A stretch of 64,000 nucleotides of DNA from Candidatus Saccharimonadota bacterium (lineage in GTDB: Bacteria; Patescibacteriota; Saccharimonadia; CAILAD01; GCA-016700035): positions 19,379-83,378 of the forward strand of contig JAXLZV010000002.1 of assembly GCA_046350755.1 (NCBI GenBank), written 5' to 3'. Both the position numbers and the translations under genes were made by a program. Position 1 is the first letter of the stretch; every line of letters starts with the position of its first letter. The notes beneath the pieces were generated by a model. It made no database searches. It was not told where the DNA came from and saw only the letters and a program-made list of their open reading frames with translations. Positions 5,785-31,636 of the stretch are shown here, piece by piece.

Positions 5785-5794
5785 TTGATGAAAA

Positions 5795-5909: not shown

Positions 5910-6077
5910 CCTCACAGAAAGGACTCTGGCCGGCACCCATGGGTGCCTCTTTTGCAGTTCATAAACTGCCAAATTCTTACAAAGTGTGTGATCCTTTTTC
6001 TGGAATATGATAGACGCGCTATGCGTGTCAGTCAGTTCCTTACTGTACGTTGCCAGACAAGCTGATCACGTACAGTC

Positions 6078-9367
<3,290 letters not shown>

Positions 9368-9605
9368 TTTTTCTCTCTATGGAGTGACTGACACGCAAAG
9401 CGTATCGTCTTATCCGAAAAAGAAATCACAATATTTTTTACCCTTTTTCTCGTAAGTATGAAGTTGTGAACGTTCGATACAAAAAAGCGTGGTATCTACC
9501 GGAGACAACCACGCGTGAAATTCCAACAAACTCTGGTTAACCGGTGGTTTCTCCTGGGTTTTGTTGTCTACTCACGTGTGGCTGTCCTCGCTTTAGTGCC
9601 TCATT

Positions 9606-9686: not shown

Positions 9687-11441
9687 CTACTCCCCCCAAC
9701 ACCAGATGATGAAGCAACGACCAGTGAGCTTGGTGTTAGCTGGTAGAGATGAGTTGGTAGCTGCATCTTTAGCGTAGATGTCGTAGCTGTAGAGGATATT
9801 GGGTTGGAGATTGTAGTCTTTGAAGTTAGTGGTGGTAGTAGTACCAAGACTTGTGTTATTACGTCTTACTTCATAGCTTGTTACACCTACATTATCGTAG
9901 GATGCAGTCCAAGTTAGATTGGTGTAGTAGGCAAACTTTAGGGCGTCATAGTTAACGCTAGCTTTGACGCTGCTGGGAGCTGAAGGAGCCGTAGTATCGG
10001 TGGTTGGTGGGGGTGGAGTGGTGGGGGATGCTTGGGTGGTAGCAGAGGTAGTTGCACCAGTGGATACAAGACCACCTACATCCTTAGCTGTAACTTTATA
10101 GTTATATTTAGTAGCTGGAGTTAGGCCAGTGTCAGAGAAGGATAGCTTAGGGCCAGAGTAGATTTGTTTATCATTACGAGTCACGGTGTAGTTGAGAGTC
10201 CCTGTACTATCATCAGTGGCTACTGGCCAAGTGAGATTGATTTGTGTACTAGAGATGACTGAGGCAGAGAGACTAGCTGGACCTACTGGTGCTTTATTAC
10301 CAGGAGTTGGTGTGGGGCTAGGAGTGACGGTAGTGGTAGGTGGTGTTGGGGAGGGGGTGGAGGTGGAGGTACCAGGAAATACAGTTACCGTTGGGGTTGG
10401 CCCAGTAGGCTGCCCCTCTCCAGTACGACATGGTACGCGGAATTTCCCGGTCAAGGTTGGACTACCACCATTCTTGCGATCAAACAGATATCCATCAAAA
10501 TTCCAAGTATTAAACTGAGGACAGAAAGTGTCGGTAAATTTGGCCTGCGCTACCTGATCATTGTATTCTGCAACTGCCACGTTCTTACCACGCTCAATAA
10601 AGGCCTTCAAGTTTGGGCAAGTATCTTTATAAGAGACAAGACATTCTTCAATCAATGCCCAATCATACACATCTGCTACTACTCGTCCGTCGGCAAACTT
10701 TTCTCGAGCCAGCTCTGGCACATTCTTTAAGGCAATCATCATACCTCGCTTATGAGCTTCATCAGCCAGAAACTTCATATAATCTAATTGTTGTGCCTTA
10801 GTCGGTACTTTCACTTTTCCAGAAGCATCATATTCAGCTTGGCTGTAGGTATAATTGTCCAGCCAATCTGGTTCTATCCCTTGACAGCCTTTCTCTTTTG
10901 AAACATCCATCCGCCCCGCCATAATACTTCGTACTGTTGGATCCATAATGTCTATCCAGCGCTCATCGCCCCAGTTCTGTGGGTCAGTTGCTGAAACTGC
11001 TGAGGCTGGAAACTTATTATAATCTGGGCGCCACTGAGCCGCTGTCCCAACTTCAAAATAGCAAGTTACCAGTGCATTCTGAGACTTCATGGTTGCAACT
11101 TGTGCGCTACTTACATCTTCGTAGTCAAAATCATAATGTTTTTTAGGATTAGCTTCGGTAGCTAATGCATTAACTTTTGGAGTATTTTCCAACTGCCACC
11201 AAAAACTAGTGTAAGGGGCGAGACGCGGAATAGTAGCAGTTGCTGGATAACTACCAACACCCGGCGTTGCTGCCCAAGCCAACAGCGCATAAAGACCACC
11301 ATATAAAATTACCGCGCCGGCCACAATCGCCAAAATACCTAGATTAATATTCTTTACTGTAGATACTCTACTCGAAGTCTTAGCAGTCTTAGCGCTAGAT
11401 CCTCTAGACTTAGATTGATTTCGTTTCTTAGTAGCTGGCAT
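9687..11441 (-). CDS. Secreted GH114-like (endo-alpha-1,4-polygalactosaminidase/PelA-hydrolase-like TIM-barrel) protein with a Thr/Pro linker, 2 FN3 domains and the C-terminal tag 'GRCFIIWCWGE'
   Basis: 'VTCYFEVGTAAQWRPDY' and 'GCQGIEPDWLDNYTY' resemble the GH114 CY.S.G..E.WR and DG.FLDN.D signatures. The N-terminus is MPATKKRNQSKSRG plus a transmembrane helix. The FN3 pattern (W...SxD..GV..Y.V.RN) is repeated twice. Confidence 0.5.
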   Translation of the reverse strand: MPATKKRNQSKSRGSSAKTAKTSSRVSTVKNINLGILAIVAGAVILYGGLYALLAWAATPGVGSYPATATIPRLAPYTSFWWQLENTPKVNALATEANPKKHYDFDYEDVSSAQVATMKSQNALVTCYFEVGTAAQWRPDYNKFPASAVSATDPQNWGDERWIDIMDPTVRSIMAGRMDVSKEKGCQGIEPDWLDNYTYSQAEYDASGKVKVPTKAQQLDYMKFLADEAHKRGMMIALKNVPELAREKFADGRVVADVYDWALIEECLVSYKDTCPNLKAFIERGKNVAVAEYNDQVAQAKFTDTFCPQFNTWNFDGYLFDRKNGGSPTLTGKFRVPCRTGEGQPTGPTPTVTVFPGTSTSTPSPTPPTTTVTPSPTPTPGNKAPVGPASLSASVISSTQINLTWPVATDDSTGTLNYTVTRNDKQIYSGPKLSFSDTGLTPATKYNYKVTAKDVGGLVSTGATTSATTQASPTTPPPPTTDTTAPSAPSSVKASVNYDALKFAYYTNLTWTASYDNVGVTSYEVRRNNTSLGTTTTTNFKDYNLQPNILYSYDIYAKDAATNSSLPANTKLTGRCFIIWCWGE

Positions 11442-11520
11442 GGTATTTAATGATCCTTTTTGTATTAATACTTGTGAGTTAGTTTAAGCTTAAGGGTTTT
11501 ATTTAAATCCGTCAAATCCT

Positions 11521-12087
11521 CTACTCCGCCCAACACCAGATGAGGAAGCAACGACCAACCAGGCGGGCTGAGGTGGCAGTGCTGGTGTTACCGGCCGCAT
11601 CACGGGCTTGGATGTCGTAGGTGTAATAGGTATTGGCAGCAATGTTGTAGTCTTGGAAGTTGGTCTTCGTAGGAGTACCAAGGGTAGTACCATTGCGTTT
11701 GACGACGTAACTGGTCACGCCCACGTTGTCGGTACTAGATCCCCAGCTCAGATTAGTGTAGTAGCTGAAGCGGAAGGCATCCCAGACGATATTGCCTTTG
11801 ACGTTGGTGGGAGCTGATGGAGCTGTCGTGTCAGCTGGTGGCGGTGGAGGTGGGGTGATGGTCGTCGTAGTCGTTGGGGTTGGTGATGGAGCTAGAGTGG
11901 TGACGGACAGGGTGGCACCGGTGCTGGTGTTACCAGCGGCGTCACGAGCGACCACTTTGTACTGGTAGGTAGTACCAGCCGTCAGACCAGTGTCATTGGT
12001 AGAGAGACTAGTACCAGTAGCGATTTGAGTACCATTACGGGTTACGACGTAGCTGGTGACACCGACGTTGTCAGTAGCAGCAGGCCA
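11521..12087. repeat. 567 bp block 100% identical to 17652..18218 (it encodes the last FN3 domain, linker and CFLIWCWAE tag of two different beta-helix proteins)
   Basis: Identical plus-strand ORF translations (11608..11817 versus 17739..17948) and direct nucleotide comparison. The two sequences diverge immediately upstream of the block (gtcaaatcct versus gtcaatcttcc) and downstream of it. Confidence 0.85.
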
Positions 12088-14283
12088 TGACAGATTAATC
12101 TGTGAGGTACTCGCGGCAGAAGCACTCAGGCTAGCTGGGCCGGTTGGAGCAGTCGTGTCGGGCGGAGGTGTGACGGTAGTAGTTGGTGTGATGGTGGTGG
12201 TTGGCGTAGGAGTAACGTCAGAAAGCGCTCCGTACACTTGCGTACCAGCTGGAATGTACTGGTTAATCACAGCGTTCGTACCTGTATAGGCAGGTATGAC
12301 ATATGCCTGTGAATTAGCCGTCGCGAGCGCGCTGGTAGCCGTTCCATCGGTATTGAGCCAGTTATTCCCTGACTTACCTTTCGCATCTAAGCCAGGAATG
12401 AGCACAGGAGAGCCAGCCAGAGCCGCCGTCCATGAAGCGACATCAGTGTAGTCCCTGATCCCATCACGGATGATGCGCGTCGTACCATTTGCATACACGT
12501 TACCATCTATGACTGTCTGTGGAAGATTGCGGGTTGCATCGGCTTTATGAATAACCTGGTCGAGCGTGGTTGTCGCACCAGACGAATGCTTGAGTAGGAA
12601 GCATAGACCAACTGACGTCGTGGATCCACAGAGACTTCCACTACCAGTCCGTGGGTAGGCAATAATATTATTCACCATGACATCTATGCGCGGCATCCAG
12701 TCCATAGTATTACCGATCGATGAAGCAAACCGACCTTGGCGATCACCAGGCCATGTCTGCACATTTGATGGACAATTAGCCGCACTGGCAGCACAAGCAC
12801 CTGACCGACTATCGATATAGACACCTGTCGGATCATACCCGCCGACCAATGTATTGTTGACGACGCGCAAACCTGATGAGCCAGACATTTTGAGAGGCTG
12901 GCCTCCTGTAGCGGATATATAGTTATTCGCTAGCGTGAGGCCATCGGAGATCTCGAAGAAAACCCCGGCTCCAGTATTATCTTTAATGAGGTTCTTAACA
13001 ACTGCTACATTGATATTGCTTTGGTCAAACCACAGCCCATGCGAGTTATTGTTGGCGATAAAACTATTTAGTACTTTAGTACCGCGCGTTCGACTCGTCT
13101 TCAGCGCACCGCTGGCAGGTGATGATTTGAACTCCTCAAAAGGATCAGTGTTGGTGATTTTCACCGAATCCATGGTGAAGCTGTCAGTCTGGTTGGCGTT
13201 CACCGACTGCCAGCCAACATCATGGATGGTGATTTTTTTCAGGAGGTTATTATCGTTCAGACCGATATGTATAGCTTCAAATGGCATATCTGAGAGTTCG
13301 GTATTCACGACAGTCGTATTACTTGCAGTGCTTTCAATAGTAATCGCACCGTAGTCATTTGCATTGGCAGAATATCGATTGATCTTCAAGCCTTCGATAG
13401 TGACGCGAGCTGAAAAAATTTGGAACAATCGATCGCGATCGGCAGTGGTTGGATTACCAGGTCGAGAAGTTTCAATACCAGCTTTCGCGGCATCGTTCGC
13501 AGTCATATAGAGTCGATTCGTCGTTCGGTCGACATAAAACTGGCCGTCAACGAGCGTGGCCTTATTCAGCGTCTGCTTCAGAGCCGTCGTTCCTATCCAA
13601 GCCTGATCAGCATAGCGTCCCACGCCATCGCCGTTGAGGTTTGTCATGCTGTTCGAGCTAGTAAGGTCAGAAAATGTCACCCCACCACCATCCTGAAGCG
13701 GCCGTGGCACATAGGCGCGGTAACGATAATTGCCTTCGGCAACCCACTCGGAACTCGCCGAAGTTGGGGCCTCGATTGAACCACGGATTTCTGGAATCTG
13801 GCCAGGATATGCAACGATGCGTAAACCATCACGACCACTGCCACTAATCTGGATATTGGCTTGATTTCGATACATACCACCATACAGCACGATAGTGCTG
13901 TTGGCAGTCGTTGTCTGAGCTACGGCTCGCGCCAGCGTACAAGGATCAGCTGAGGTACAGGCCGAAGTCGTAGAGCCAGTTGGTGAAGCATAGCGAATCG
14001 TACCGGTGAGCGAGGATATATTGTAGGATATCGGCAAGGTCGCGCCAGCAGCATTCCCCGCCTTAACAGACTGCAGCGCAGTGTATTCAGTAGTGCCTGC
14101 TCGGCTTACGAAGAAAAAGATTGCGCCGGCAATAATTACTAAGCCCGCTATTAATAACAGTGTAGTTTTACTGAAGTTTGGCCATTTCGAAAGGAGTCCT
14201 TTCGGCTGCACCTTGGCAGTACGACTTCTCGTACTTGGCCGTGATTTGGCTTTGGAAGTGGGCTTTTTGGTTTGAGCCGGCAT
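11521..14283 (-). CDS. Secreted right-handed parallel beta-helix (pectate-lyase-fold) protein with 2 FN3 domains and the C-terminal tag 'GRCFLIWCWAE'
   Basis: The central region has repeated Asn-ladder beta-helix turns (NNTLVGG, VVNN, NNII). The N-terminus is MPAQTKKPTSKAKSR plus a transmembrane helix. The C-terminal 189 aa are identical to those of the 17652..20387 product. Confidence 0.55.
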   Translation of the reverse strand: MPAQTKKPTSKAKSRPSTRSRTAKVQPKGLLSKWPNFSKTTLLLIAGLVIIAGAIFFFVSRAGTTEYTALQSVKAGNAAGATLPISYNISSLTGTIRYASPTGSTTSACTSADPCTLARAVAQTTTANSTIVLYGGMYRNQANIQISGSGRDGLRIVAYPGQIPEIRGSIEAPTSASSEWVAEGNYRYRAYVPRPLQDGGGVTFSDLTSSNSMTNLNGDGVGRYADQAWIGTTALKQTLNKATLVDGQFYVDRTTNRLYMTANDAAKAGIETSRPGNPTTADRDRLFQIFSARVTIEGLKINRYSANANDYGAITIESTASNTTVVNTELSDMPFEAIHIGLNDNNLLKKITIHDVGWQSVNANQTDSFTMDSVKITNTDPFEEFKSSPASGALKTSRTRGTKVLNSFIANNNSHGLWFDQSNINVAVVKNLIKDNTGAGVFFEISDGLTLANNYISATGGQPLKMSGSSGLRVVNNTLVGGYDPTGVYIDSRSGACAASAANCPSNVQTWPGDRQGRFASSIGNTMDWMPRIDVMVNNIIAYPRTGSGSLCGSTTSVGLCFLLKHSSGATTTLDQVIHKADATRNLPQTVIDGNVYANGTTRIIRDGIRDYTDVASWTAALAGSPVLIPGLDAKGKSGNNWLNTDGTATSALATANSQAYVIPAYTGTNAVINQYIPAGTQVYGALSDVTPTPTTTITPTTTVTPPPDTTAPTGPASLSASAASTSQINLSWPAATDNVGVTSYVVTRNGTQIATGTSLSTNDTGLTAGTTYQYKVVARDAAGNTSTGATLSVTTLAPSPTPTTTTTITPPPPPPADTTAPSAPTNVKGNIVWDAFRFSYYTNLSWGSSTDNVGVTSYVVKRNGTTLGTPTKTNFQDYNIAANTYYTYDIQARDAAGNTSTATSARLVGRCFLIWCWAE

Positions 14284-14376
14284 GATCGATATCCTTTTTA
14301 TATTCGGAGAATTAATGAATCTACTTCAATTACTGTTAGCATAAGCACTATGTACTAAAGTGTCAACGTAGCTAAC

Positions 14377-16242
14377 CTATTCCGCCCAACACCAGATGAG
14401 GAAGCAACGACCAACCAGGCGGGCCGGCGACGAGCCAGAGCTGATATTCCCAGCCTTATCATAGGCAAATATTTCGTAGCTGTAGACTGTGTTGGCGACA
14501 ATATTCGAGTCTTTAAAGTTGGTAGTCGTAGCCGTACCGAGGTTAGTCCCATTACGGCGCACCAGATAGTCTCGTACCCCACTGCCAGAATCGGATGAAG
14601 CACTCCAGGAGAGCGAAACACCATAGCTCAAGCGGAGGGCATCATAAACGAGGCTGGCTTTGATATTCGTTGGAGCAGTCGGCGGAGTAGTGTCAGCCGA
14701 ACTGACTTGCAGTTTCGTAAAACTCACCGTCTTTGTTATCGTCTGAGCATTTCCGTAGCTGAGTACAACCTTGAGTGTGTGAGGCCCGGCTGCCAAGTTA
14801 GCGATCGAATAATCTAAGCAGGTAATGTCTCCACCACCAATACAATACTTCGCCACGGTCTCTTTCTTGGCTAGCTGATCATCGATATAAAAATCAACCT
14901 GCTGGAAGTTAGCTGCATTTGCTACCTGAGCTTCAACATTGATCGAGCTGGTAACCGATGCCCCAGCCGCTAGGCCAACGATGTCGAGCGTTGCGGTTGG
15001 TAACGGCGTGATGGTAGTCGTTGGGGTGATAGTCGTGGTTGGGGTGATGGTAGTCGTGGGCGTAATGGTAGTCGTTGGCGCTGTCGTAGGAGTACCGAGA
15101 TCAGCGATGCGTTGAACCTTACCGATTGCCGTGCCAGACTTCAAGATAGACTGGAACGCCAGTAGGTTATCATCGCGTAATGAGGCGTAGTAAGGGCTAG
15201 TAGGGTCTGGCCTTGATTCGTCCGCATCAAAGTAGCTATAGGCAACTGCGTCTTTCTTGTTGAGGAAGCCCCATTCCCAAACTTTCTGGAAGTATTGGGT
15301 AAAGCGAAGTGGTCCGGTGCGCTCTTCGCTTAAGCTCCACTCACCAACTCCCCATGGCATCTTTTTTGCCTCTAAATAATTGATCGTGTCATATCGTGCT
15401 TGGGTTTCAAAAGTGTTACCACCTTTATCAACACAGTCGCGCTGACAGTAGTTACTAAACATAACTACGTCCCAGATACCATCCACCCACCAATCGGCTG
15501 GATTGCGTTTACCAGCACTGATGGCGCTTTTAGAGAAGGTGTAATCCATAAAGTGCGGCATAAATGCAATATTCTTCGTGCCTTTGCCAGCATTAGCGGC
15601 ATTCATGCGAGCACGGAAGCGTGACTGCATCGCCCGATAAGAACTAGCTGTCCGAGTCACCCCGTCGGTATCATTTTCCGGCTCATGTTGCATGGTTACC
15701 CAAACTGGCTTTCCGAGCGCATCAAGTCCAGCTATCAACTTATCAAGCTGAGCGTCATACTTGCCGCTCCCAATTCCGCTCCAATCCGATGCTGCTTTAA
15801 AGGTGACATAAGGTAGGCGCCCAGCGTCATGACCAGACTTAGCCTTACTGACAATGCCACCACCATCAATATCACCCCACTGGTGATAAGTATGATACAG
15901 GGAAATAGGCTTACCCGTAGGCACTTCGTGGCGCGCGCGCACATCTGAAGTCTTCGTGCCATCAGCCAGCAGCGCATTAACGTTAGCCCCCCAATAGGCC
16001 TTACCACTCACACGTGGATTCGGATCACCCGGGAAGCGCCGCTGAATCGTCGACCCATCAGCTAATTGGTAAGTTGTCGGCGTCGCCGCCTGTGACAACA
16101 ACACGTAGAGGCCACCGGCCAAAATCAGTACACCGGCAATAATTGCTAGCAGTCCATAGTTGAGCTTAGACTTTGTGGCCAGACTTTTCTTGCTTACGCG
16201 AGCGTTTGGTTTTTTCTTGGAGGTTTTTGATTTTGTGGCCAT
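14377..16242 (-). CDS. Secreted clan GH-A glycoside hydrolase (GH26-like mannanase/glucanase candidate) with a (TPTTTI)x4 linker, an Ig-like domain, FN3 and the C-terminal tag 'GRCFLIWCWAE'
   Basis: 'VTMQHEPEND' (HE[PM]N acid/base-like) and 'WGVGEWSLSE' (nucleophile-like) were read from the translation. The perfect TPTTTI repeats are encoded around 15000-15070. An AGGAG Shine-Dalgarno sequence lies 5 nt upstream. Confidence 0.45.
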   Translation of the reverse strand: MATKSKTSKKKPNARVSKKSLATKSKLNYGLLAIIAGVLILAGGLYVLLSQAATPTTYQLADGSTIQRRFPGDPNPRVSGKAYWGANVNALLADGTKTSDVRARHEVPTGKPISLYHTYHQWGDIDGGGIVSKAKSGHDAGRLPYVTFKAASDWSGIGSGKYDAQLDKLIAGLDALGKPVWVTMQHEPENDTDGVTRTASSYRAMQSRFRARMNAANAGKGTKNIAFMPHFMDYTFSKSAISAGKRNPADWWVDGIWDVVMFSNYCQRDCVDKGGNTFETQARYDTINYLEAKKMPWGVGEWSLSEERTGPLRFTQYFQKVWEWGFLNKKDAVAYSYFDADESRPDPTSPYYASLRDDNLLAFQSILKSGTAIGKVQRIADLGTPTTAPTTTITPTTTITPTTTITPTTTITPLPTATLDIVGLAAGASVTSSINVEAQVANAANFQQVDFYIDDQLAKKETVAKYCIGGGDITCLDYSIANLAAGPHTLKVVLSYGNAQTITKTVSFTKLQVSSADTTPPTAPTNIKASLVYDALRLSYGVSLSWSASSDSGSGVRDYLVRRNGTNLGTATTTNFKDSNIVANTVYSYEIFAYDKAGNISSGSSPARLVGRCFLIWCWAE

Positions 16243-16272
16243 ATCGGCTCCTAATTATGCATGATTGTCTTG

Positions 16273-16301
16273 ATTGTAAACACTTATGCTTAACTGGTCA
16301 A
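16273..16301 (-). promoter_or_regulatory. Sigma70-type promoter (TTGACC-17 nt-TACAAT) for the 14377..16242 gene
   Basis: The -35 box is at 16296-16301 and the -10 box at 16273-16278 on the minus strand. The spacer contains the recurring 'TTAAGCATAAG' motif. Confidence 0.4.
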
Positions 16302-16307
16302 TTTTTT

Positions 16308-17600
16308 CTATGGGTACTGCAAGAGATTGATGTAAGTTGCCCAGGTATTCGACGAGTTGAGGTGTAAGTTCATATTGCCATCACTACAGCCTTCCCAATA
16401 TGTCCGAGCAATATTTCGTTGATTCAGGAGAGCGACATTCTGACTGATCCAAAGATCTCGGTTGTTAACATCACGGCCTATGCCATACTCACCAAGATAG
16501 AGAGGTAATCCAGAAACTTGCGACCAACCAACCATCTTGTCATAGTGGCGGGCCATTTCAGCGTAAGAAGTAGTGCTCGATAGATAATCGGCGCTACCAC
16601 TCGAGAGCGAGTTGCCAGCTCCACCCCAACCGCTTGCGCTATAACCATCGTCGTCGCCTCCAGCAAAGTAGCTATGATGCGACAAGACTAAGTTGTATTT
16701 GTTCTGGAGAATATTCCAATCCACTCCATCCCAGCTAGAATCACCGGTGATCGGCTCAATCATAAGAATTTTTTCGGCATCCACCGATCGCACAGCGTTA
16801 ATCAGTGTGTTATACATCGTTAAGTTACTGTTTTGATCAAAGGGCAGTGGATTGACGTGTGGTTCATTGACGAGGTCAATTGCGATTACCTTGGGATCGT
16901 TTTTATACCGGGCTGCAATCGTTTTGAGATAAAACGAACCATTATTCTGAATCTTCTGAATTGCGTTTTGACCCGATACCCAATTCGGCAGATTACCGCT
17001 TACCGTCTTGAGATGTATTGGGTCCAGGATAACGTAGAGACCATTATTCTTGGCTGCCGCGATCGTGTCATCTAGACGCTGCAGAGCGGTCGTACTGATC
17101 GTTCCCTGTGTCGGCTCGAACGATGGCCAATCCATCGCCAGACGGACAGCATTAAGCCCACGTGCCTTCCAGCCCGCCCAGTTATTGATATCCCCTCCGC
17201 ACAATGAGGCTGGCGAATAACTACCAACATTGCGCTGATTGACACCGTTGATTTTCACCGGGGTGCCATCCTGCTTAACAAACGGATAATTGGCGCTGGT
17301 TTTTAGCACTTCATTGTTCGTACTTACCGCGGGTGCCATAAACTCAACATAGTTGCCATCGGCTGCCGTAGCGTCAGGCTTGACGGCGACTGTACCCCCA
17401 GAGGCTGGCCAAGTCTCTGGCTCAGTGTTCTTTAGGGCTGCTGCCCGTACGAAGAAGATAATGGCTGCGCCCAAGATAGTCACCATCGCTACCACTGCAA
17501 GCAACTGACCTCGACTCAGCTTGGGTTTACTGATCAAACCTTTCTTGGCGACTCGAGAGGTGGTTAATTGCTTCTTAGGGGTTTTGGTTTTTGTGGGCAT
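16308..17600 (-). CDS. Secreted GH5-family glycoside hydrolase, N-module type paralog (no C-terminal tag)
   Basis: GH5 signatures are present: 'AIDLVNEPH' (NEP) and 'LYLGEYGIG'. The N-terminus is MPTKTKTPKKQLTTSRVAKK plus a transmembrane helix plus the 'ETWPASGG...YVEFMAP' module. Confidence 0.7.
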   Translation of the reverse strand: MPTKTKTPKKQLTTSRVAKKGLISKPKLSRGQLLAVVAMVTILGAAIIFFVRAAALKNTEPETWPASGGTVAVKPDATAADGNYVEFMAPAVSTNNEVLKTSANYPFVKQDGTPVKINGVNQRNVGSYSPASLCGGDINNWAGWKARGLNAVRLAMDWPSFEPTQGTISTTALQRLDDTIAAAKNNGLYVILDPIHLKTVSGNLPNWVSGQNAIQKIQNNGSFYLKTIAARYKNDPKVIAIDLVNEPHVNPLPFDQNSNLTMYNTLINAVRSVDAEKILMIEPITGDSSWDGVDWNILQNKYNLVLSHHSYFAGGDDDGYSASGWGGAGNSLSSGSADYLSSTTSYAEMARHYDKMVGWSQVSGLPLYLGEYGIGRDVNNRDLWISQNVALLNQRNIARTYWEGCSDGNMNLHLNSSNTWATYINLLQYP

Positions 17601-17651
17601 ATCGAATCCTAGTTAACTGCTTAGCAGTATGAGCAGAGGCGTCAATCTTCC

Positions 17652-18218
17652 CTACTCCGCCCAACACCAGATGAGGAAGCAACGACCAACCAGGCGGGCT
17701 GAGGTGGCAGTGCTGGTGTTACCGGCCGCATCACGGGCTTGGATGTCGTAGGTGTAATAGGTATTGGCAGCAATGTTGTAGTCTTGGAAGTTGGTCTTCG
17801 TAGGAGTACCAAGGGTAGTACCATTGCGTTTGACGACGTAACTGGTCACGCCCACGTTGTCGGTACTAGATCCCCAGCTCAGATTAGTGTAGTAGCTGAA
17901 GCGGAAGGCATCCCAGACGATATTGCCTTTGACGTTGGTGGGAGCTGATGGAGCTGTCGTGTCAGCTGGTGGCGGTGGAGGTGGGGTGATGGTCGTCGTA
18001 GTCGTTGGGGTTGGTGATGGAGCTAGAGTGGTGACGGACAGGGTGGCACCGGTGCTGGTGTTACCAGCGGCGTCACGAGCGACCACTTTGTACTGGTAGG
18101 TAGTACCAGCCGTCAGACCAGTGTCATTGGTAGAGAGACTAGTACCAGTAGCGATTTGAGTACCATTACGGGTTACGACGTAGCTGGTGACACCGACGTT
18201 GTCAGTAGCAGCAGGCCA
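17652..18218. repeat. Second copy of the 567 bp identical 3' module (see 11521..12087)
   Basis: As above. Confidence 0.85.
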
Positions 18219-20387
18219 GTTCAGGATGAGGCTCGTTTGGCTCACCGATGAAGCAGCGATACTAGCCGGACCCACGGGAGCGGTGGTGTCAGCGGGTGGT
18301 GGAGGGGGTGTAACGGTGGTGGTTGGGGGTGGAGTAGTAGTCGTGGTGGTGGGGGCAGTCGTCGGGTAGATAGCGCCACGGACAGGCACAGTCCCGGCGG
18401 GTAGGCCGAGGGCGGCGGCGACGTCAGCTGGCAGGGCTTTTCCTTTTTGAGTAGCGGCCAGGGCATCAGTTTTGAGGCGGAAATCCTGACCCGCCCTATC
18501 AACAAACGGGCTATTAGCCTCAACGCTAAAACTATTCATTTCAAACTTGTTGTTGGTCAAACGCTGCATATCGGCCACGGATTTATAGCCATCAGTTGTA
18601 CCGTAATAGTACAGGTTTTGACTCGTATTTAAGCGATAGTAGGCGTTGTAATCGAAGGCCGTAAAGAACTGATCAGCTGTCGTATTTAATGCACCTGAAC
18701 CGTTAACGGCAAGAACTAGTCTAGCCCCGTTCTGCGTATCCGGTGCAACGACAAGGTTATTTACAAGCTCGACGCCGGCAGTACTTGGCCCATTATCGTG
18801 AGCTCCATCATACCAAGGCCAGACTGCGGTCGCACTGGGTGGTGTACGTATATCATCGTAGACATTAATCCCCTGTACGCGCGAGCCATACTTATCGACA
18901 ACAGTGTTGTTATAGACCTTCACATTGGCTGAAGCCACCGTGATGCCATCATCATCGTTATTGTAGACAAGATTGTTCGCGATAATACCCTTATTGCCAA
19001 CTTCGTAAAAAATACCAGGCCCACCGTTATTACGCACCACATTATTCACGGTTACCATGTCTGAGCAGTTTTGATCACACCACATACCTGGTGCCCGAGA
19101 GAATTGATTCTCAAAGACATTGTTCTTCACCGTAAACCCAACCATGTGCGCCATCTTAATTCCTGAAGGCCCACAGGCACGATTACAGTACAAGCCGCCA
19201 CGTTCCCAGTTATTACTATTAAAGATGTTGCCTTCAACCACGATATCATTACGTGCTCCTGGAGTTTTAGAAGCTCCATTTGCACCCATCCCCGTCCCAC
19301 CGTTAAAGGCCACTACAGAACTACGCAGAATGGTACCTGGTTTAGGGTTACTATAAACAAACCCACCGGTCGCATTTTCAGTGAAGACTGTGTTTTCTAT
19401 TAACGCCTTACGAGCGAAGTAGACCGCGCCGCCAGTAGTTGTGCTTTCACCACCATTCGTGGCATAGCGCTTGAAGCCAATTCCCTTGATCTGATGACTG
19501 TCCGTATCGGCACCGGCTAGAATGAAAGCAGCTGGTCGAGCGCTGAGCTCAACTTTCTTTCCATTAGGATCAGTGCCAATATACATCCGTCGTGCCGTCC
19601 AGTCGTAATAGAACTTCCCTGCCGTAGCTTGTGCCAGACTGGCAACTTCCTGCTGTCGCACGTCATTAATAAAAGCCTGTTGGGGGTTGCCAGCCATTGG
19701 ATATGCCGGATCGTTCGCAGCATCTTCATACATGCACTTCGTCTCTTTGATATTTGGGTCGGTCGTGCCATCAGCTCGCCTTTGAGGTGTGTACGGTGCA
19801 ATCGAATAATTGTAATAACTATTGCCACAGAAACTCGGTGTCTCCCAGGTTCGATACCAGTGGCCTGCTCCATCGCTCGTCCAACCGTCGCTAACAATAT
19901 CAGCACCGTTAAACCAAGGTGATTCGCCTGGATATGCTTGAATGGTAATGCTTTTATTTATTGCACCTTCAACATTGGGTGTCGTTGAGTACCAATCACG
20001 ATAGTCACCCCCTCGCATTACGATAGTCCCCCCAGAAGCCGTCTTAGACACTGCAGAGTTAATCGTTTTCACTGGTGTATTCAGCGACTTGCCATCATTT
20101 GCATCATTCCCGGTCGGTGACATATACGTCGCGCCCGCTGGAATCGCATAGTTCGTCTTTGGGATAGTTTTACCAGAGTTATCAAGTGCCGCCGTCGCTT
20201 GACCAGCCGTTGTGTAGTCGGCCGGCGTCGCCGCTCGTGTCAGTAAGACATAAAGTCCACCGACTAGGATAAGTACTCCAGCAATAATCGCCAGCAGTCC
20301 ATAGTTGAGCTTAGACTTTGTGACGAGACTCTTCTTGGCGACTCGGGCAGTTGGTTTTTTCTTGGAGGTTTTTGATTTTGTGGCCAT
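17652..20387 (-). CDS. Secreted right-handed beta-helix (pectate-lyase-fold) protein with 2 FN3 domains and the C-terminal tag 'GRCFLIWCWAE'
   Basis: The region has PbH1-type repeats ('VVRNNGGPGIFYEVGNKGIIANNLVYNNDDDGITVASANVKVYNNTVV'). The N-terminus is MATKSKTSKKKPTARVAKK plus a transmembrane helix. The C-terminal 567 nt are identical to 11521..12087. Confidence 0.55.
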   Translation of the reverse strand: MATKSKTSKKKPTARVAKKSLVTKSKLNYGLLAIIAGVLILVGGLYVLLTRAATPADYTTAGQATAALDNSGKTIPKTNYAIPAGATYMSPTGNDANDGKSLNTPVKTINSAVSKTASGGTIVMRGGDYRDWYSTTPNVEGAINKSITIQAYPGESPWFNGADIVSDGWTSDGAGHWYRTWETPSFCGNSYYNYSIAPYTPQRRADGTTDPNIKETKCMYEDAANDPAYPMAGNPQQAFINDVRQQEVASLAQATAGKFYYDWTARRMYIGTDPNGKKVELSARPAAFILAGADTDSHQIKGIGFKRYATNGGESTTTGGAVYFARKALIENTVFTENATGGFVYSNPKPGTILRSSVVAFNGGTGMGANGASKTPGARNDIVVEGNIFNSNNWERGGLYCNRACGPSGIKMAHMVGFTVKNNVFENQFSRAPGMWCDQNCSDMVTVNNVVRNNGGPGIFYEVGNKGIIANNLVYNNDDDGITVASANVKVYNNTVVDKYGSRVQGINVYDDIRTPPSATAVWPWYDGAHDNGPSTAGVELVNNLVVAPDTQNGARLVLAVNGSGALNTTADQFFTAFDYNAYYRLNTSQNLYYYGTTDGYKSVADMQRLTNNKFEMNSFSVEANSPFVDRAGQDFRLKTDALAATQKGKALPADVAAALGLPAGTVPVRGAIYPTTAPTTTTTTPPPTTTVTPPPPPADTTAPVGPASIAASSVSQTSLILNWPAATDNVGVTSYVVTRNGTQIATGTSLSTNDTGLTAGTTYQYKVVARDAAGNTSTGATLSVTTLAPSPTPTTTTTITPPPPPPADTTAPSAPTNVKGNIVWDAFRFSYYTNLSWGSSTDNVGVTSYVVKRNGTTLGTPTKTNFQDYNIAANTYYTYDIQARDAAGNTSTATSARLVGRCFLIWCWAE

Positions 20388-20414
20388 ATGATAATTCCTA
20401 AATATTTTGAGGCT

Positions 20415-20443
20415 ATAGTATTCCTGTTATGCTTACTAGTCAA
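20415..20443 (-). promoter_or_regulatory. Sigma70-type promoter (TTGACT-17 nt-TACTAT) for the 17652..20387 gene
   Basis: The -35 box is at 20438-20443 and the -10 box at 20415-20420 on the minus strand. The spacer again contains 'AGTAAGCATAAC'. Confidence 0.4.
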
Positions 20444-20452
20444 TAGAACTGC

Positions 20453-21964
20453 TCACAGCAGCCAACACCAAATCAGGAAACATTGACCCTGTACGCTCAG
20501 CTTGGTTGGAGTCGAGACATTCCCCGCCGTATCACGGGCTCTGAGCTCATAATTGTAGGTTGTACCCGCATCGACCGCTGTATCCACAAAGCTCGTTGTA
20601 GTAACGGGCCCGACCACCGTCGAGTTGCGAGTGACAAGATAATCCTTGATGCCGACATTGTCAGACGACTTCAGCCAGGTGAGCTGCAGATTATAGCGAC
20701 CGCGCGTCCAATCGAAGACGAGTGACGGTCGGAGATTGGTGGGCTGAGTCGGCGGTGCTTGATCGAGGCTATTTGGTGCCGGAGAGACAATTGGGTTTGG
20801 CGAAGTCGTCGGGGTTGGCGTTGGTAAGATGGTCGTCGTTGGTACAGGCGAAGGCGTGCCTGAAACCACTGGACTGGTCGTTGTAGTCGGCGTGACGCTC
20901 GTCGTCGGAGTAGCGACAGGGCTCGCCCCCCAAGCATAGGCTTTGGTACCATCTTTCTTCCACTGCGGCTCAATCACTTTGACCTTATCCCACGGTATCG
21001 ACTTGTAAGGGAAGTAATCTGCCGTAGAGGCACCGGCTTTCTGATAGACATTGCGGCCGGTGCGATCAAACTCGACACCTATACCAAATATTCCACCCGT
21101 GTCATCTGCATAAGCGCCGTACTTCTGAAGCGCCCGGGCGACGATTTTCTCGAGCTGAGTTATGCCGGGAATGGCATCAACATTAATGCTCGGATCTAAC
21201 TGAATCCGCGACCCAATTGGTATGCAAGTAGTCTGGTCGGCTGTGGTGCCATCACTGTGGAGCGCCGGATAGTACGGCTCACCCTTACAGGTAGTACTGG
21301 TTGAGAATGTAAGCGCGTGATCTATCACCCCCTGCTCGATCTCATATGTCCGAACAATCCCTCCCGCTAATCCGGCTACGTTTGTTCCGCCACCAACACC
21401 ATTTCCATCGATGCTAGCAACCCCGGCTGAACCTGGACACCACTGGGCGCCGATCCAATTCCAGGTTAGAGTGCAATCTTTCCAGATCCAGTAGCTATAA
21501 ATTTTCCGAGTGCTGGTATCGATAATGGTTACATGTCCATCGCCACCCCGCTGCTTAAAGACACCCGATGGCACAGGCACTGGCGTCTTACTGATTTCGT
21601 CACAGGTGTACACATAGCACCAGACAACAGCCTTAGGGGTATTCGCATCAGCGTGGAATACTGGTACCGACCATTCAAGTAAGGAGCTCGCGGCTGGTAA
21701 GCCAGCCGCTTTGAGGCGGGTTTGACCGTCAGGTAAATAACGCACATCACCTGGAATCGCCTGATTGAGCGGACTATCATCAGAAAACAGCCGGCCGCTC
21801 GGCGTATTAGTCGATGCATTATAGGCATAGCGCCCAATGGCCGCTCGCGAATACAGCACATAAATACCCCCCAACACAAATAAAAGCACCGTCAGGATCA
21901 ATAGCTCCTTGCGAAATTGGGGCGACTTATGTGCTTTCTTCTGAGAAGTGACAGCTTTTACCAT
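20453..21964 (-). CDS. Secreted protein with a catalytic-size domain of unknown family, a Thr/Pro linker, FN3 and the C-terminal tag 'GQCFLIWCWLL'
   Basis: The start is moved to the ATG at 21964 (MVKAVTSQKKAHKSPQFRK plus a transmembrane helix). The ORF-track start at 22195 would overlap the divergent uppS gene. The central region ('GNGVGGGTNVAGLAGGIVRTYEIEQGVIDHAL') resembles the corresponding region of the 22885..24852 product. Confidence 0.5.
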   Translation of the reverse strand: MVKAVTSQKKAHKSPQFRKELLILTVLLFVLGGIYVLYSRAAIGRYAYNASTNTPSGRLFSDDSPLNQAIPGDVRYLPDGQTRLKAAGLPAASSLLEWSVPVFHADANTPKAVVWCYVYTCDEISKTPVPVPSGVFKQRGGDGHVTIIDTSTRKIYSYWIWKDCTLTWNWIGAQWCPGSAGVASIDGNGVGGGTNVAGLAGGIVRTYEIEQGVIDHALTFSTSTTCKGEPYYPALHSDGTTADQTTCIPIGSRIQLDPSINVDAIPGITQLEKIVARALQKYGAYADDTGGIFGIGVEFDRTGRNVYQKAGASTADYFPYKSIPWDKVKVIEPQWKKDGTKAYAWGASPVATPTTSVTPTTTTSPVVSGTPSPVPTTTILPTPTPTTSPNPIVSPAPNSLDQAPPTQPTNLRPSLVFDWTRGRYNLQLTWLKSSDNVGIKDYLVTRNSTVVGPVTTTSFVDTAVDAGTTYNYELRARDTAGNVSTPTKLSVQGQCFLIWCWLL

Positions 21965-22072
21965 AATGCTTATGAATATAGTACCTGATGATAGCCAAAA
22001 AAACGACTCCAGAATGACCGCCTCAAGAAAACCTCTCGTGATTGACTTTCTCGTCAGGTTCGGTAGTCTATA

Positions 22073-22786
22073 ATGGACTCTATATTTATGAACACGAACC
22101 ACCCCTCCACCCCGACGCACGTCGGTTTTATACTCGACGGCCATCGCCGCTGGGCCAAAGACCAGGGTAAGCCGCTTGTCGCCGGTCACCGTCAAGGGTA
22201 CAAAAACTTTAAAAAAATCGGGCTCGCCGCACTCGACCGCGGCGTAAGCTACGTCAGCGCCTATGTTTGGTCAAAAGAAAACTGGCAACGTTCAGCCGAA
22301 GAAGTGAACTATATAATGAAGCTCCTCCTCTGGGTGGCTGATCACGAATTGAAAGACATTCATGAGCGGGGTGTACGAATTCGTTTTCTCGGTAACAATG
22401 ATCGACTAGCACCCAAAGTAGTCGAAGCCATTGAGCACGCCGAAGCCACCACCGCCAACAATACCAATGGCACGTTGGCCTTATGCCTCAATTATGGTGG
22501 TCGTGAGGAAATTGTTGATGCGACTCGAGCAATCGTTGAGGCCGGCGTCCCATCCGATAAGATAACTGTCGACACAGTACGCGAACATCTCTATGCCCCC
22601 GACATACCGGACGTTGATTTGCTCATCCGGAGTTCTGGCGAACAACGCATCTCTGGCTTTATGCTCTGGCGCGCCGCCTATGCAGAACTCCTCTTCGTCG
22701 ATAAGATGTGGCCTGACTTCTCGGTGGAAGACCTCGACAATGCGCTGGCCGAATTCGCCAACCGACAGCGTCGCTTCGGCGCCTGA
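22073..22786 (+). CDS. uppS: Undecaprenyl-diphosphate synthase (cis-isoprenyl transferase)
   Basis: 'HVGFILDGHRRWAK', 'RFLGNNDRL' and 'LNYGGREEIV' match UppS family motifs (HVAIIMDGNGRWA / NYGGR). The length is 237 aa. Confidence 0.9.
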   Translation: MDSIFMNTNHPSTPTHVGFILDGHRRWAKDQGKPLVAGHRQGYKNFKKIGLAALDRGVSYVSAYVWSKENWQRSAEEVNYIMKLLLWVADHELKDIHERGVRIRFLGNNDRLAPKVVEAIEHAEATTANNTNGTLALCLNYGGREEIVDATRAIVEAGVPSDKITVDTVREHLYAPDIPDVDLLIRSSGEQRISGFMLWRAAYAELLFVDKMWPDFSVEDLDNALAEFANRQRRFGA

Positions 22787-22884
22787 GGTACACAACTAGC
22801 TGCATAAATACTGCCGCAGATAGCCACATCGAAATGCTTATGCTAAACTCTGTGTAATCAACAATTTATACACAGCTATAAGCT

Positions 22885-24852
22885 ATGAAAAAACCCCCTT
22901 CCAAACAAACCCAAAAAAGAAAATCGGTCGCAAAAAAGGCTAGTCCTCCCAGGCTCCAGAGTCTACCGTCTTTTTTACGTAGCCCAGTTGGCATTATCTT
23001 AATCCTGGCACTAGTCATGATTGGCATACTGCTTATAGCCCTCTCGCGCGCCGCAACTTCACCGACGATATTAACGCCTCAGACCGCCTCGAGCCCAAGC
23101 TGCGGAGCACGCGTTACAAATTATTCCTACCGAGTTCCCTTCGGTAATGCGCCGTGGAACGTGCCAGCCTGCAACATGCCAAAATTCAGCCAGTCGGCTG
23201 ACTATGTATCACGACTCTACAATTATGGTAACCAAAATGATGGCTCTGCCGCCGGTCTGACTTCAAGGGGCAAATTTCAAATCGGCTTTGGATTGGGAGA
23301 ACTCAAAACCGTCTTCTCGCGAGCTATCTACACAGCTGATGAAGCGGCTGGGAAAACCATCCAGGTGCGCGTCTGCGGAAACCCCAATTGTGTCCCATCC
23401 AATCTCGATGGAGAGCTGAAATACGGTGATCCGAAGGGCTATCTGCCAGACATGCGTATCCCCTGGGATCCCAACTGGCCAGTCGCCGAGGCCGGTGATA
23501 ATGAGGTCGTCATCCTGAACCCAACCAACGGACAGCTCATCGCACTCGCCCAAGTCAAGAAATCGACCGGAAACGCCCTGGGCGATATCCTCAGTGGCGC
23601 CACCGGCCAATGTGGCATCCTCTATCCCGAACGTTTGTGTGTTGCAAGCGCTAAAATCCTGCGTGATCAGAACGGCAATATCGCCAACTACTTTACGTAT
23701 GAAGGCTCGAGTGGTGATCGCGGTGGTGGCATATCCTACTATGCTGGGATTATCACCCCTCAAGAAGTTGCAGCCGGCGAGATCCGCCACGCGATTGCGA
23801 TGGGTATCTTTAATGCCGCTTTTGGCCCTGAGTGCACAAAAGCCCAACTCGATACCAATAATTGGAGTGTTATTGGAAAAACCTGTGGTACCGCCCTAGG
23901 GCCAGCTGCAAAATTTGAGTGGGCTGGTGCGCGTAAAGCCTCCGAACGTGGTGCTTCCGAAAACGCTCAAGCCCTTGATCCGATATATACTCTCGATAAA
24001 ACTATCCCCGAAGGCATGCGCTTTGTCCTCAATATCTCTGACGCTGAGATGGAAAACTTTATCAGCTCCAAAGGCTATACCGGCGCCAAGGCCAACACGA
24101 CGCGCATCATAATCCGAGCTCTGCGTGACTATGGCATCATCCCACTCGACACCGGTGGTACCGTCAATCTACAGACTGCTGGTGGCGTGAGCCCACGTAA
24201 TCGTGAGCTTTGGAAGCAGCTTGGCATCACCTCGACCGAGGACGATAAGCTTCTCTACGGCCTCTTCAACGAAACCAACCTGTATGTCGTAGAGCCGCCA
24301 ACCAACAATTGTGTCGATGGCCGCAAAACAAAATTCTACTGTGCCTATACTTCCAGTAACTACTTCAGCGCAACCAGCTCCACTTCAACTATCTTGCCAC
24401 CGACAACAACCAACCCCCCAACCACAACGGCCACAGCAACCGCCAACCCAACCGTCACCGCCGCAGCGCCAGGCTCAAAAACGAGTCCTCAACCTGGCAC
24501 CAGCACGCCACCGCCAACTACCACCGGCCCAACCGCCCCCATTTTCATCGAACCAATTCTTGGTACCCTCCAGTGGAATGTCAGCTCATTCGAGTTTGGT
24601 ATGGGAGCCAGCTTCGAATGGAAGGCCAGCGCAAGTACGGCTGGGATTAAACAGTACACCATCTTGAAAGACGGCCAAAAAATCTACGAGGGTCAAGCCA
24701 CAAAGTTTATCGACTTCCGAGTTGTTGACGGGAAGAGTTACCAATATCAAATATATGCGGTTGACTTGGCTGGTAAACAATCAGCTGTCACAACCCTTCA
24801 GAAAACCTACAGATGTGTCGCCTTTGGCTTCATCGATTGTAAGTTTCAATAG
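22885..24852 (+). CDS. Secreted protein (Lys-rich N-terminus plus a transmembrane helix; central domain related to the 20453..21964 product; Thr/Pro linker; C-terminal FN3-like domain ending in the variant tag 'YRCVAFGFIDCKFQ')
   Basis: Translation features were read directly. It is the only plus-strand member of the paralog family, arranged divergently with uppS in between. Confidence 0.5.
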   Translation: MKKPPSKQTQKRKSVAKKASPPRLQSLPSFLRSPVGIILILALVMIGILLIALSRAATSPTILTPQTASSPSCGARVTNYSYRVPFGNAPWNVPACNMPKFSQSADYVSRLYNYGNQNDGSAAGLTSRGKFQIGFGLGELKTVFSRAIYTADEAAGKTIQVRVCGNPNCVPSNLDGELKYGDPKGYLPDMRIPWDPNWPVAEAGDNEVVILNPTNGQLIALAQVKKSTGNALGDILSGATGQCGILYPERLCVASAKILRDQNGNIANYFTYEGSSGDRGGGISYYAGIITPQEVAAGEIRHAIAMGIFNAAFGPECTKAQLDTNNWSVIGKTCGTALGPAAKFEWAGARKASERGASENAQALDPIYTLDKTIPEGMRFVLNISDAEMENFISSKGYTGAKANTTRIIIRALRDYGIIPLDTGGTVNLQTAGGVSPRNRELWKQLGITSTEDDKLLYGLFNETNLYVVEPPTNNCVDGRKTKFYCAYTSSNYFSATSSTSTILPPTTTNPPTTTATATANPTVTAAAPGSKTSPQPGTSTPPPTTTGPTAPIFIEPILGTLQWNVSSFEFGMGASFEWKASASTAGIKQYTILKDGQKIYEGQATKFIDFRVVDGKSYQYQIYAVDLAGKQSAVTTLQKTYRCVAFGFIDCKFQ

Positions 24853-28759: not shown

Positions 28760-28852
28760 GCTAGAAGCTTTGCTGCCCGAACGCAAATCACTTGTCAGAT
28801 AACCTGAAAAAAGGTACAATATGCCAGTTCTACATCTCGGATGAATAAACCC

Positions 28853-30108: not shown

Positions 30109-31636
<1,528 letters not shown>

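Follow-up and report, generated by a model that had tools for sequence, protein, structure and literature searches.

The window analyzed here, a 64,000-nucleotide stretch of contig JAXLZV010000002.1 from a Candidatus Saccharimonadota bacterium, carries an array of genes for secreted enzymes, five of which, all on the minus strand, end in a near-invariant peptide rich in cysteine and tryptophan. In the translated open reading frames (ORFs), this tag reads G-[RQ]-C-F-[LI]-I-W-C-W and is followed by exactly two residues and the stop codon. The first-pass annotation had drawn attention to these five tails, and both the translation and a search with the degenerate DNA pattern G-x-C-F-[LI]-I-W-C-W bear this out: the pattern occurs at exactly five sites in the window, which are those of the five genes, with none expected from 100 shuffles. 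In the six-frame ORF listing, ORF 9687-11441 (minus strand) terminates in ...TGRCFIIWCWGE, ORFs 11521-14283, 14377-16242, and 17652-20387 (minus strand) have the C-terminus ...VGRCFLIWCWAE in common, and ORF 20453-22195 (minus strand) terminates in ...QGQCFLIWCWLL. A sixth gene on the plus strand, 22885-24852, ends in ...TYRCVAFGFIDCKFQ. We refer to genes by their first coordinate, to the five Cys/Trp tails as class 1, and to the tail of gene 22885 as class 2.

Modular enzymes with a common C-terminal end

The first tagged gene (9687-11441, minus strand) encodes a secreted enzyme of glycoside hydrolase family 114 (GH114; 584 amino acids; Pfam GH114, E=2.8e-50, and fn3), composed of a signal peptide, the GH114 domain, a Thr/Pro linker, a fibronectin type III (FN3) domain, a second linker, a terminal FN3 domain, and the tag, whose codons (9696-9722, minus strand) spell G-R-C-F-I-I-W-C-W, then G-E and the stop. 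Two further genes encode secreted enzymes with a right-handed, pectate-lyase-like beta-helix. The product of 11521-14283 (minus strand; 920 amino acids) matches Beta_helix, NosD, and fn3 in Pfam, with an additional precomputed Pel9A-like_beta_helix match graded as faint, and ends in an internal FN3 domain, a terminal FN3 domain, and the tag (G-R-C-F-L-I-W-C-W, 11530-11556, minus strand); the second beta-helix enzyme, likewise recognized by Pfam (17652-20387, minus strand; 911 amino acids), has an internal FN3 domain, a linker, a terminal FN3 domain, and the same tag (17661-17687, minus strand). The product of 14377-16242 (minus strand; 621 amino acids) combines a catalytic domain that has no family match with a Big_7 Ig domain, a terminal FN3 domain, and the tag G-R-C-F-L-I-W-C-W (14386-14412, minus strand); Pfam recognizes Big_7 and fn3 only, and residues 55-384 match no Pfam family at E≤1, with no relative in the PDB outside the FN3 domain. 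The fifth protein, encoded by gene 20453, consists of an unassigned N-terminal domain, a long Thr/Pro linker, a divergent terminal FN3 domain, and the tag G-Q-C-F-L-I-W-C-W, written in synonymous codons unlike those of the other four (20462-20488, minus strand). Its start is most likely the ATG used in the public assemblies, which gives a secreted protein of 503 amino acids (20453-21964, minus strand). The gene on the plus strand (22885-24852) encodes a secreted protein of 655 amino acids with an unassigned domain, a linker, a terminal FN3 domain, and the class 2 tail Y-R-C-V-A-F-G-F-I-D-C-K-F-Q (24808-24849). The N-terminal domains of the 14377, 20453, and 22885 proteins match no Pfam family at E≤1 and have no sequence relative in the PDB.

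The five genes had been described as consecutive, which they are not: an untagged GH5 gene without an FN3 domain (16308-17600, minus strand; Pfam Cellulase, E=6.9e-32; ending ...INLLQYP) sits between 14377 and 17652 and provides a comparator inside the array. As to the cargo, the initial assignments of GH114 and of two beta-helices are supported by Pfam, whereas the 14377 protein, proposed to be GH26-like, offers no such match; a clear GH26 with the tag is present in a related MAG (L029, see below). The tagged enzymes run from the catalytic domain through a Thr/Pro linker, an FN3 domain, and a second linker to the terminal FN3 domain and the tag, so that the tag directly abuts the last FN3 domain, as had been noted, but does not follow a Thr/Pro linker, which stands before the FN3 domain. 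The Lys/Arg-rich N-terminus with one hydrophobic helix and an A-x-A-like site at its end is indeed present in the tagged proteins, but it recurs in the untagged GH5 proteins 16308, 4163, and 2281 and is therefore a generic export signal of the organism rather than part of a tag-specific layout.

Some of the likeness within the array is recent. The last 567 nucleotides of genes 11521 and 17652 (11521-12087 and 17652-18218), which encode the internal FN3 domain, the linker, the terminal FN3 domain, and the tag, are identical, while the catalytic parts differ; two of the five tags thus represent one recent copy. Genes 14377 and 17652, in turn, are 83% identical over their 5' 150 nucleotides. These two identities point to an array shaped by gene conversion, duplication, or module shuffling. 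Five array genes (9687, 11521, 14377, 16308, and 17652) have a promoter-like site of their own, TTGAC-N16/17-TA(A/T)GCT/TACAAT, ~40-90 nucleotides upstream of their starts, and similar sequences, TTGAC...CTTAAGCTTAA, recur between tagged genes in two related loci (L027 and L031). Separately, we observed that the untagged secreted proteins 2281-3387, 4163-5695, and 16308-17600 (all minus strand), which have neither FN3 nor tag, share a conserved segment, TE[VP]ETWPA[ST]GG..., right after the signal helix, possibly a binding domain at the N-terminus.

The tag lies outside the FN3 fold

AlphaFold2, applied to the last 105 residues of the 11521 protein with a 33-sequence alignment, returned a confident FN3 domain (mean predicted local distance difference test score [pLDDT], 90.7), with pLDDT values above 90 up to the last (G) strand at residues 89-94 (...SARLVG). 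Over the tail that follows, R-C-F-L-I-W-C-W-A-E, the pLDDT falls to ~75 and then to 53, and the peptide is not docked on the domain, forming at most a helix of five residues at low confidence. When the FN3 model was submitted to Foldseek, the hits were plain FN3 domains, led by the FnIII domain of Bacillus circulans chitinase A1 (1k85; 40% identity). PDB alignments to the FN3 domains of the 14377, 20453, and 22885 proteins stop 13-19 residues short of the C-terminus and leave the tag uncovered. Finally, in an exhaustive search of 1.84 billion representatives with a profile of FN3 plus tag, a search dominated by giant multi-FN3 proteins and informative only on where generic matches end, the best-aligned segment of each of the 150 top hits stops at profile position 80-94 of 100, no later than the beginning of the tag (positions 90-100). 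Taken together, the model, the Foldseek hits, the ends of the PDB alignments, and the top library matches rule out that the tag is the last (G) strand of a common FN3 domain. The sorting-signal interpretation of the first-pass annotation had been tied to two possible findings, that the motif is the generic last strand of FN3 or that orthologues lack it, and neither of them holds.

The terminal domain itself is an ordinary FN3 domain (PF00041) of the bacterial glycoside-hydrolase type, a seven-strand beta-sandwich. Pfam fn3 matches were found in four of the six proteins (cutoff, 25 bits), that of 14377 lying below the cutoff at 19.0 bits, and none in 20453 and 22885; the NCBIfam CbhB FN3 region matches all five class 1 proteins and not 22885. 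The terminal domain carries a five-residue aromatic insertion in its A-B hairpin (VWDAFRFSYY), which the internal FN3 domains of the same proteins lack; these end in ...ATLSVTT and a linker and have no tag. Tag and insertion do not always go together, as a metagenome variant introduced below (L128) has the tag and lacks the insertion.

The peptide is under selection in a narrow clade

An exact-motif scan of one genome per species (185,579 species) returned 30 loci. In 14 of them, a total of 17 matches lie in frame at a C-terminus, always with exactly two residues after C-W; 16 of these end an FN3-terminated ORF, and the 17th (L009) stops at the end of the locus after 17 residues. The other 16 loci hold out-of-frame chance matches in short ORFs. 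The in-frame matches are confined to seven species-level metagenome-assembled genomes (MAGs) of Saccharibacteria/Patescibacteria and to the L009 contig, which is binned elsewhere. The cargo of the tagged proteins in these relatives is a beta-helix, GH114, a clear GH26 (L029), Big_7 with an unassigned domain, or a 20453-like domain. Since the tag never occurs without FN3 in the bacterial genome matches, the functional unit is the module of ~100 amino acids rather than a portable short signal.

To describe the variation of the peptide, we collected 21 distinct DNA sequences of the tag region (from the genome loci, the window, and L128) and aligned 20 class 1 modules. Over the 21 DNA versions, the tag residues are G-[RQ]-C-F-[LI]-[IVF]-W-C-W, while every degenerate tag codon varies synonymously (three codons for Gly, three for Arg, two for Cys, four for Leu, and three for Ile). 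As the codons vary while the residues stay, selection acts on the peptide. In the two-residue trailer, [AGSLT][ELN], position -2 is free (A/S/L/G/T), and position -1 is Glu in 19 of the 21. The mean pairwise identity over the 20 aligned sequences is 0.94 for the tag versus 0.53 for the rest of the module (FN3), and in the 66 pairs with an FN3 identity under 45%, the tag retains an identity of 0.90; no other 9-mer of the whole FN3-plus-tag module is as conserved. Conservation through recent duplication or through a DNA or RNA element, which we considered as well, is ruled out across genomes by the synonymous codon variation, although recent duplication does hold for the 11521/17652 pair. What the first-pass annotation had described as a common end on variable cargo is thus upheld as an undescribed, strongly selected C-terminal peptide on modular secreted enzymes.

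Other collections added few members. A metagenome DNA scan with a relaxed pattern gave, among the matches listed, mostly chance hits and one new variant, L128 (GQCFLFWCWLN). Word-indexed protein searches, which return almost exclusively fragments of less than 200 amino acids, yielded three more tagged fragments (P0001, P0004, and P0279) and a homologue of the class 2 protein (P0206), and a scan of viral contigs revealed no tagged protein. A literature search found neither the tag peptide nor a signal of this kind in Saccharibacteria. The Cys/Trp peptide is thus undescribed and clade restricted, whereas C-terminal modules that direct interchangeable secreted enzymes to a surface are already known as a kind.

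The relaxed metagenome scan also brought up a similar ending, unexpectedly, in three transcript-like contigs of ~2 kb (L060, L087, and L113), which encode secreted subtilisin-type (Pfam S8) proteases of ~600 amino acids. These have a signal peptide, a Cys-rich domain, and a long Pro/Thr linker, and they end in [EQ]-C-C-F-L-[FV]-W-C-W-[SD]-C-stop without an FN3 domain. Their source is apparently eukaryotic. The likeness of their tails to the tag could be convergence or chance, ~0.1 such matches being expected by chance in an order-of-magnitude estimate.

Paired cysteines and a second class of tail

The tail of the 22885 protein had been taken for a looser variant of the tag. It does differ from the tag, but it belongs to a second, separately conserved class, TY[RK]C[VS]AFG[FL]IDCKFQ, rather than being a mere variant: the homologue P0206 keeps the tail and ends in TYKCSAFGLIDCKFQ, and between 22885 and P0206, 11 of the 14 tail residues are conserved at an FN3 identity of 76%. 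In the AlphaFold2 model of the class 2 module (md842a6e170bb), strands are predicted at residues 88-99 and 101-106 with pLDDT values of ~82 and 75; the G strand continues beyond the domain and folds back as a beta-hairpin, in whose register C96 faces C104. The last Cys lies four residues from the end in both classes.

Each of the six proteins has an even number of cysteines, and these fall into close pairs (e.g., 109/115, 497/504, 552/561, 401/405, 437/441, and 193/198), and the i, i+5 spacing of the two tag cysteines fits this rule. From this pattern, the simplest reading is that the tag pair forms a local disulfide. By analogy with the class 2 hairpin, the class 1 tail would be a disulfide-closed loop of four residues, F-L-I-W, followed by a Trp. 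The tail comprises seven contiguous apolar residues between R and E, and the Wimley-White interfacial free energy is -6.2 kcal/mol for CFLIWCW versus -1.6 kcal/mol for the class 2 loop. The tail occupies the distal end of the last FN3 domain; one or two FN3 domains, together with the Thr/Pro linkers, form a stalk that has the catalytic domain at its opposite end.

Comparison with known C-terminal signals and modules

We next compared the tag with described sorting signals. No NCBIfam model matches it when whole proteins, the 95-amino-acid module, or the 22-amino-acid tail are searched at E≤10, and Pfam likewise has no match to it; the lone row from a sorting model, LPxTATN (E=0.15; 12.4 bits against a cutoff of 32), falls on residues 41-61 of the 11521 protein, that is, on the N-terminal signal helix. 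Neither a membrane-spanning segment nor a basic cluster occurs in the class 1 tail, where just two residues follow the motif, and an LPXTG-type pentapeptide is absent from all six C-termini. Like an LPXTG signal, the tag is a C-terminal element common to surface proteins of varied cargo, stands behind a Pro/Thr-rich stalk, and occurs in a monoderm-type organism; the LPXTG motif, the hydrophobic membrane segment, and the basic tail of such signals are all missing. A canonical sortase signal does occur elsewhere in the window, in a PKD/DUF11 surface protein (53980-55548, minus strand) that ends in LPATG, 20 hydrophobic residues, and RNRLIRK. With a classical LPATG signal on another protein of the same genome, the Cys/Trp tail must be a different device. 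A PEP-CTERM, PGF-CTERM, GlyGly-CTERM, or MYXO-CTERM identity was ruled out as well, since there is no transmembrane helix, no Arg/Lys cluster, and no profile match. The analogy with the LPXTG, PEP-CTERM, and PGF-CTERM families drawn in the initial reading therefore finds no support.

No cognate membrane enzyme of the PEP-CTERM/exosortase kind was seen in the window or in ~13 related loci. Two candidates had been put forward: the DUF5684 gene 3432-3929 has no homologue in the examined stretches around the tag genes of relatives, and PrsW (28058-28819), although the sole protease of the two, lies outside the array and finds no support. Nor is any membrane protease or transferase conserved beside the arrays of relatives, where the flanking genes encode a ROK kinase, a HExxH/zinc-ribbon protein, UppS, a dienelactone hydrolase, and a ferric-reductase-like protein.

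Lipid-modification signals offer a partial likeness. As in CaaX boxes, a Cys stands at position -4 (CW[AGSLT][ELN] in 21 of 21 class 1 tags and CKFQ in class 2), but the canonical box has aliphatic residues at a1 and a2 and one of S, M, Q, A, C, L, or F at X, whereas these tails have W or K at a1 and, in 19 of the 21 class 1 tags, E at X, so that W and E are atypical there. The tagged proteins carry export signals, whereas CaaX-type prenylation is cytosolic. Neither a prenyltransferase nor a CPBP protease was seen in the window, and the only prenyl enzyme seen is UppS, the cell-wall lipid-carrier synthase. A lipobox could be ruled out from the sequence, as the Cys is preceded at -1 by Arg, which is incompatible with the Lgt consensus.

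Among peptides that attach to a membrane face, the C-terminal amphipathic helix of PBP5 and PBP6 and the targeting sequences of MinD and FtsA are likewise short, C-terminal, and hydrophobic and attach without spanning the membrane, and PBP5 is Sec-exported too. These, however, are variable amphipathic helices of 10-20 residues without Cys, while the tag has seven uniformly hydrophobic, Cys-bracketed, and almost invariant residues. A targeting helix of the PBP5/MinD type was accordingly ruled out, given seven apolar residues in a row and a helix of five residues at most, at low confidence. A possible parallel is offered by disulfide-stapled hydrophobic or aromatic insertion loops, such as class II viral fusion loops and the Trp-rich undecapeptide ECTGLAWEWWR of cholesterol-dependent cytolysins, which are small and rich in Cys and Trp and dip from the tip of a beta-sandwich domain into the membrane interface. 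These loops differ from the tag in being internal to toxins or fusogens and have no sequence or family relationship to it.

In its overall design, the module resembles dockerins, C-terminal domains of the type IX secretion system (T9SS), and carbohydrate-binding modules (CBMs), which are also C-terminal modules of ~100 residues, joined through Thr/Pro linkers to interchangeable catalytic domains and directing them to a scaffold, surface, or substrate. Here, by contrast, the domain is a plain FN3 whose closest match is chitinase A1 FnIII, and nothing but the 10-residue tail sets it apart; no Pfam match to PF00404, PF18962, or the CBM families was found at E≤0.01 in any tagged protein.

A putative noncovalent surface tether

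The tag exists, its peptide is under selection, and it lies outside the FN3 fold; it has paired cysteines, is hydrophobic and strictly coupled to FN3, and lacks the features of a cleaved sorting signal. Our preferred reading, a tentative one that may well be wrong, is that the FN3 domain with its 10-residue tail tethers secreted polysaccharide-cleaving enzymes noncovalently to a surface by means of a disulfide-closed hydrophobic finger. This surface would most probably be the bacterium's own envelope. Export would proceed through Sec, with cleavage of the long N-terminal signal at the A-x-A site. Oxidation would then join the two tag cysteines (i, i+5) in a local disulfide, as it would the other close pairs in these proteins. 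The bond would close the F-[LI]-[IVF]-W loop, which, together with the second Trp, would make up a compact finger of hydrophobic and aromatic side chains at the outer end of the last FN3 domain. This finger might enter the outer face of the membrane or plug into an envelope partner, while the Thr/Pro linkers and the one or two FN3 domains would serve as a wall-crossing stalk that displays the catalytic domain outward. In Gram-positive surface proteins, wall-spanning stalks adjoin C-terminal anchors, an arrangement mirrored by the order of catalytic domain, linker, FN3, and tag. The fallback in the first-pass annotation, that FN3 plus tag is a cell-wall or host-binding module, comes close to this tether.

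Several points weigh against it. Nine near-invariant residues and a fixed two-residue trailer exceed what membrane partitioning needs and point to recognition by a specific macromolecule. An interfacial free energy of about -6 kcal/mol is, by itself, weak membrane binding, and the class 2 loop, at -1.6 kcal/mol, is only weakly hydrophobic. AlphaFold2 gives the class 1 tail no confident structure, and judged by sequence, the bacterium's own envelope, a host cell, and a substrate are not distinguishable as the target. Because the near-invariant peptide and fixed trailer favor a specific partner over lipid partitioning, binding to a target, a processing enzyme, and coassembly all stay alive as explanations.

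It is conceivable, if somewhat unlikely, that the FN3 domain and the aromatic finger bind the substrate or the surface of a prey (insoluble polysaccharide, biofilm matrix, or the envelope of a host bacterium) in the manner of a miniature CBM or adhesin, delivering the depolymerases there instead of holding them at the producer. All cargo looks glycan active (GH114, GH26, and lyase-like beta-helices), a catalytic domain followed by a Thr/Pro linker and a small terminal binding module is the architecture of cellulases with a CBM, and Saccharibacteria are epibionts. Moreover, the aromatic A-B insertion adjoins the F/W/W of the tail in the terminal FN3 domain, and the internal domains have no such insertion; L128, however, is tagged without it. 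Target binding is further disfavored by the lack of similarity to any CBM family in Pfam and NCBIfam, by the very small size of a four-residue loop for a glycan-binding site, and by the expectation that enzymes with very different substrates should carry different binding modules.

A dedicated sorting or processing system, in which an enzyme would read G-R-C-F-L-I-W-C-W-x-x at the free C-terminus and then cleave, lipidate, or cross-link the protein to give covalent anchoring, appears unlikely to us. It would account for the extreme conservation, for a trailer of fixed length in 21 distinct sequences, for the last Cys at -4 in both classes, and for a common end on variable cargo that orthologues in at least seven species-level MAGs keep. 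But nothing in the tail, which has no transmembrane helix or basic segment, would hold the substrate at a membrane enzyme; the absence of a sorting-model match and of a conserved membrane protease or transferase beside the arrays, the cytosolic nature of CaaX-type prenylation with its atypical a1 and X, and the fact that the tag is never detached from FN3 all speak against such a system. We consider it decidedly improbable that Saccharibacteria have a C-terminal processing route independent of a transmembrane helix, in which an enzyme would read the tag with its Cys at -4 and either lipidate or cross-link through a Cys or remove the trailer. The secreted subtilases of eukaryote-like type carry a near-identical tail, CCFL[FV]WCW[SD]C, a hint that the principle may extend beyond Saccharibacteria.

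There is a slim chance that the peptide, beta-prone and hydrophobic with charged gatekeepers (R...E), joins the enzymes to each other or to a scaffold in a cellulosome-like coassembly, which could proceed by strand pairing or intermolecular disulfides. Five or six colocated, individually promoted enzymes with complementary activities carry the same tag, and self-recognition would account for paralogues keeping one sequence. This proposal is purely inferential, however: neither the window nor the related loci showed a scaffold protein bearing repeats of a receptor domain, Pfam reports no dockerin or cohesin match, and the close Cys spacing favors an intramolecular bond. Least probable of all is a structural cap with no targeting role, in which a lineage-specific, disulfide-stapled extension would steady the last FN3 domain or shield the C-terminus from exoproteases: this fits the class 2 tail, predicted as a hairpin continuing the G strand and about as conserved as its FN3 domain, better than the class 1 tail, whose conservation far exceeds that of its domain, which is predicted to stay undocked, and which would expose F, L, I, W, and W to solvent at a cost without a partner, and the internal FN3 domains of the same proteins manage without a tail.

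Patescibacteria, Saccharibacteria among them, live attached to other bacteria, and little is known of the way in which they display enzymes at their surface. The compact, sharply delimited module of FN3 and a 10-residue Cys/Trp tail marks a set of polysaccharide depolymerases and offers an experimental handle on this question. If the tail is a self-sufficient anchor, as the tether would have it, it would be among the shortest protein surface-retention devices known, with a possible use in surface display; if instead an enzyme reads the tail, it would define a new sorting pathway and a new way of anchoring surface enzymes in ultrasmall episymbiotic bacteria. The narrow clade of carriers (seven species-level MAGs and one contig binned elsewhere among 185,579 genomes) limits the immediate reach of either.

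Genomic neighborhood of the array

Proteins identical to those of the array occur on contigs of the aquatic metagenome PRJNA377521, and a MAG labeled Candidatus Saccharibacteria, CAZYFT, encodes a protein with 94% identity to the GH114 enzyme. The flanks of the array are kept in related MAGs, with homologues of genes 521 and 1338 on one side, which the array abuts directly, and UppS, the dienelactone hydrolase, and the ferric-reductase-like protein on the other. In the window, the rRNA genes are split, with the 23S and 5S genes at 5794-9372 and the 16S gene at 30110-31636, all on the minus strand, ~20.7 kb apart, and with the enzyme array between them; related MAGs have no rRNA between the array and the homologues of genes 521 and 1338. 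The 23S match spans 3,293 nucleotides against a model of 2,925 positions, a length that suggests an insertion.

On the far side, a ferric-reductase/FAD/NAD (NOX-like) membrane protein (25603-26916, minus strand), the dienelactone hydrolase, and UppS are syntenic with the array in L028 (881-2188), a related MAG locus, with identities of 66%, 48%, and 69%; a link of the NOX-like protein to extracellular thiol oxidation is speculative. On the near side, 1338-1835 (plus strand), which overlaps the gene of a ROK kinase, encodes a small protein with a HExxH motif, weakly matching Peptidase_M78/IrrE, and a Cys4 zinc ribbon at its C-terminus. In five related MAG loci, it keeps its place next to the array, but it has no export signal and is therefore unlikely to act on the tag. 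In six related loci (L006, L011, L016, L023, L025, and L027), a conserved intergenic sequence, AAAACTTGA(C/G)TCAAAAGCATTGACAGAnTAAGCATAAGCTGATAGAG, lies 10-70 nucleotides downstream of the last tagged gene and is probably the promoter region of the neighboring divergent gene.

Two further observations concern genes farther from the array. The beta chain of phenylalanyl-tRNA synthetase (PheRS; 60077-62902, minus strand) has an NlpC/P60 match (residues 448-560, E=4e-13) between B3_4 and B5, an unusual combination. Two adjacent giant proteins of 1,579 and 1,502 amino acids (38266-47518, minus strand) have N-terminal membrane helices, matches to Kelch-type beta-propellers, and near-identical C-terminal ends (...GDPVVTS...AAQSTTTPT...).

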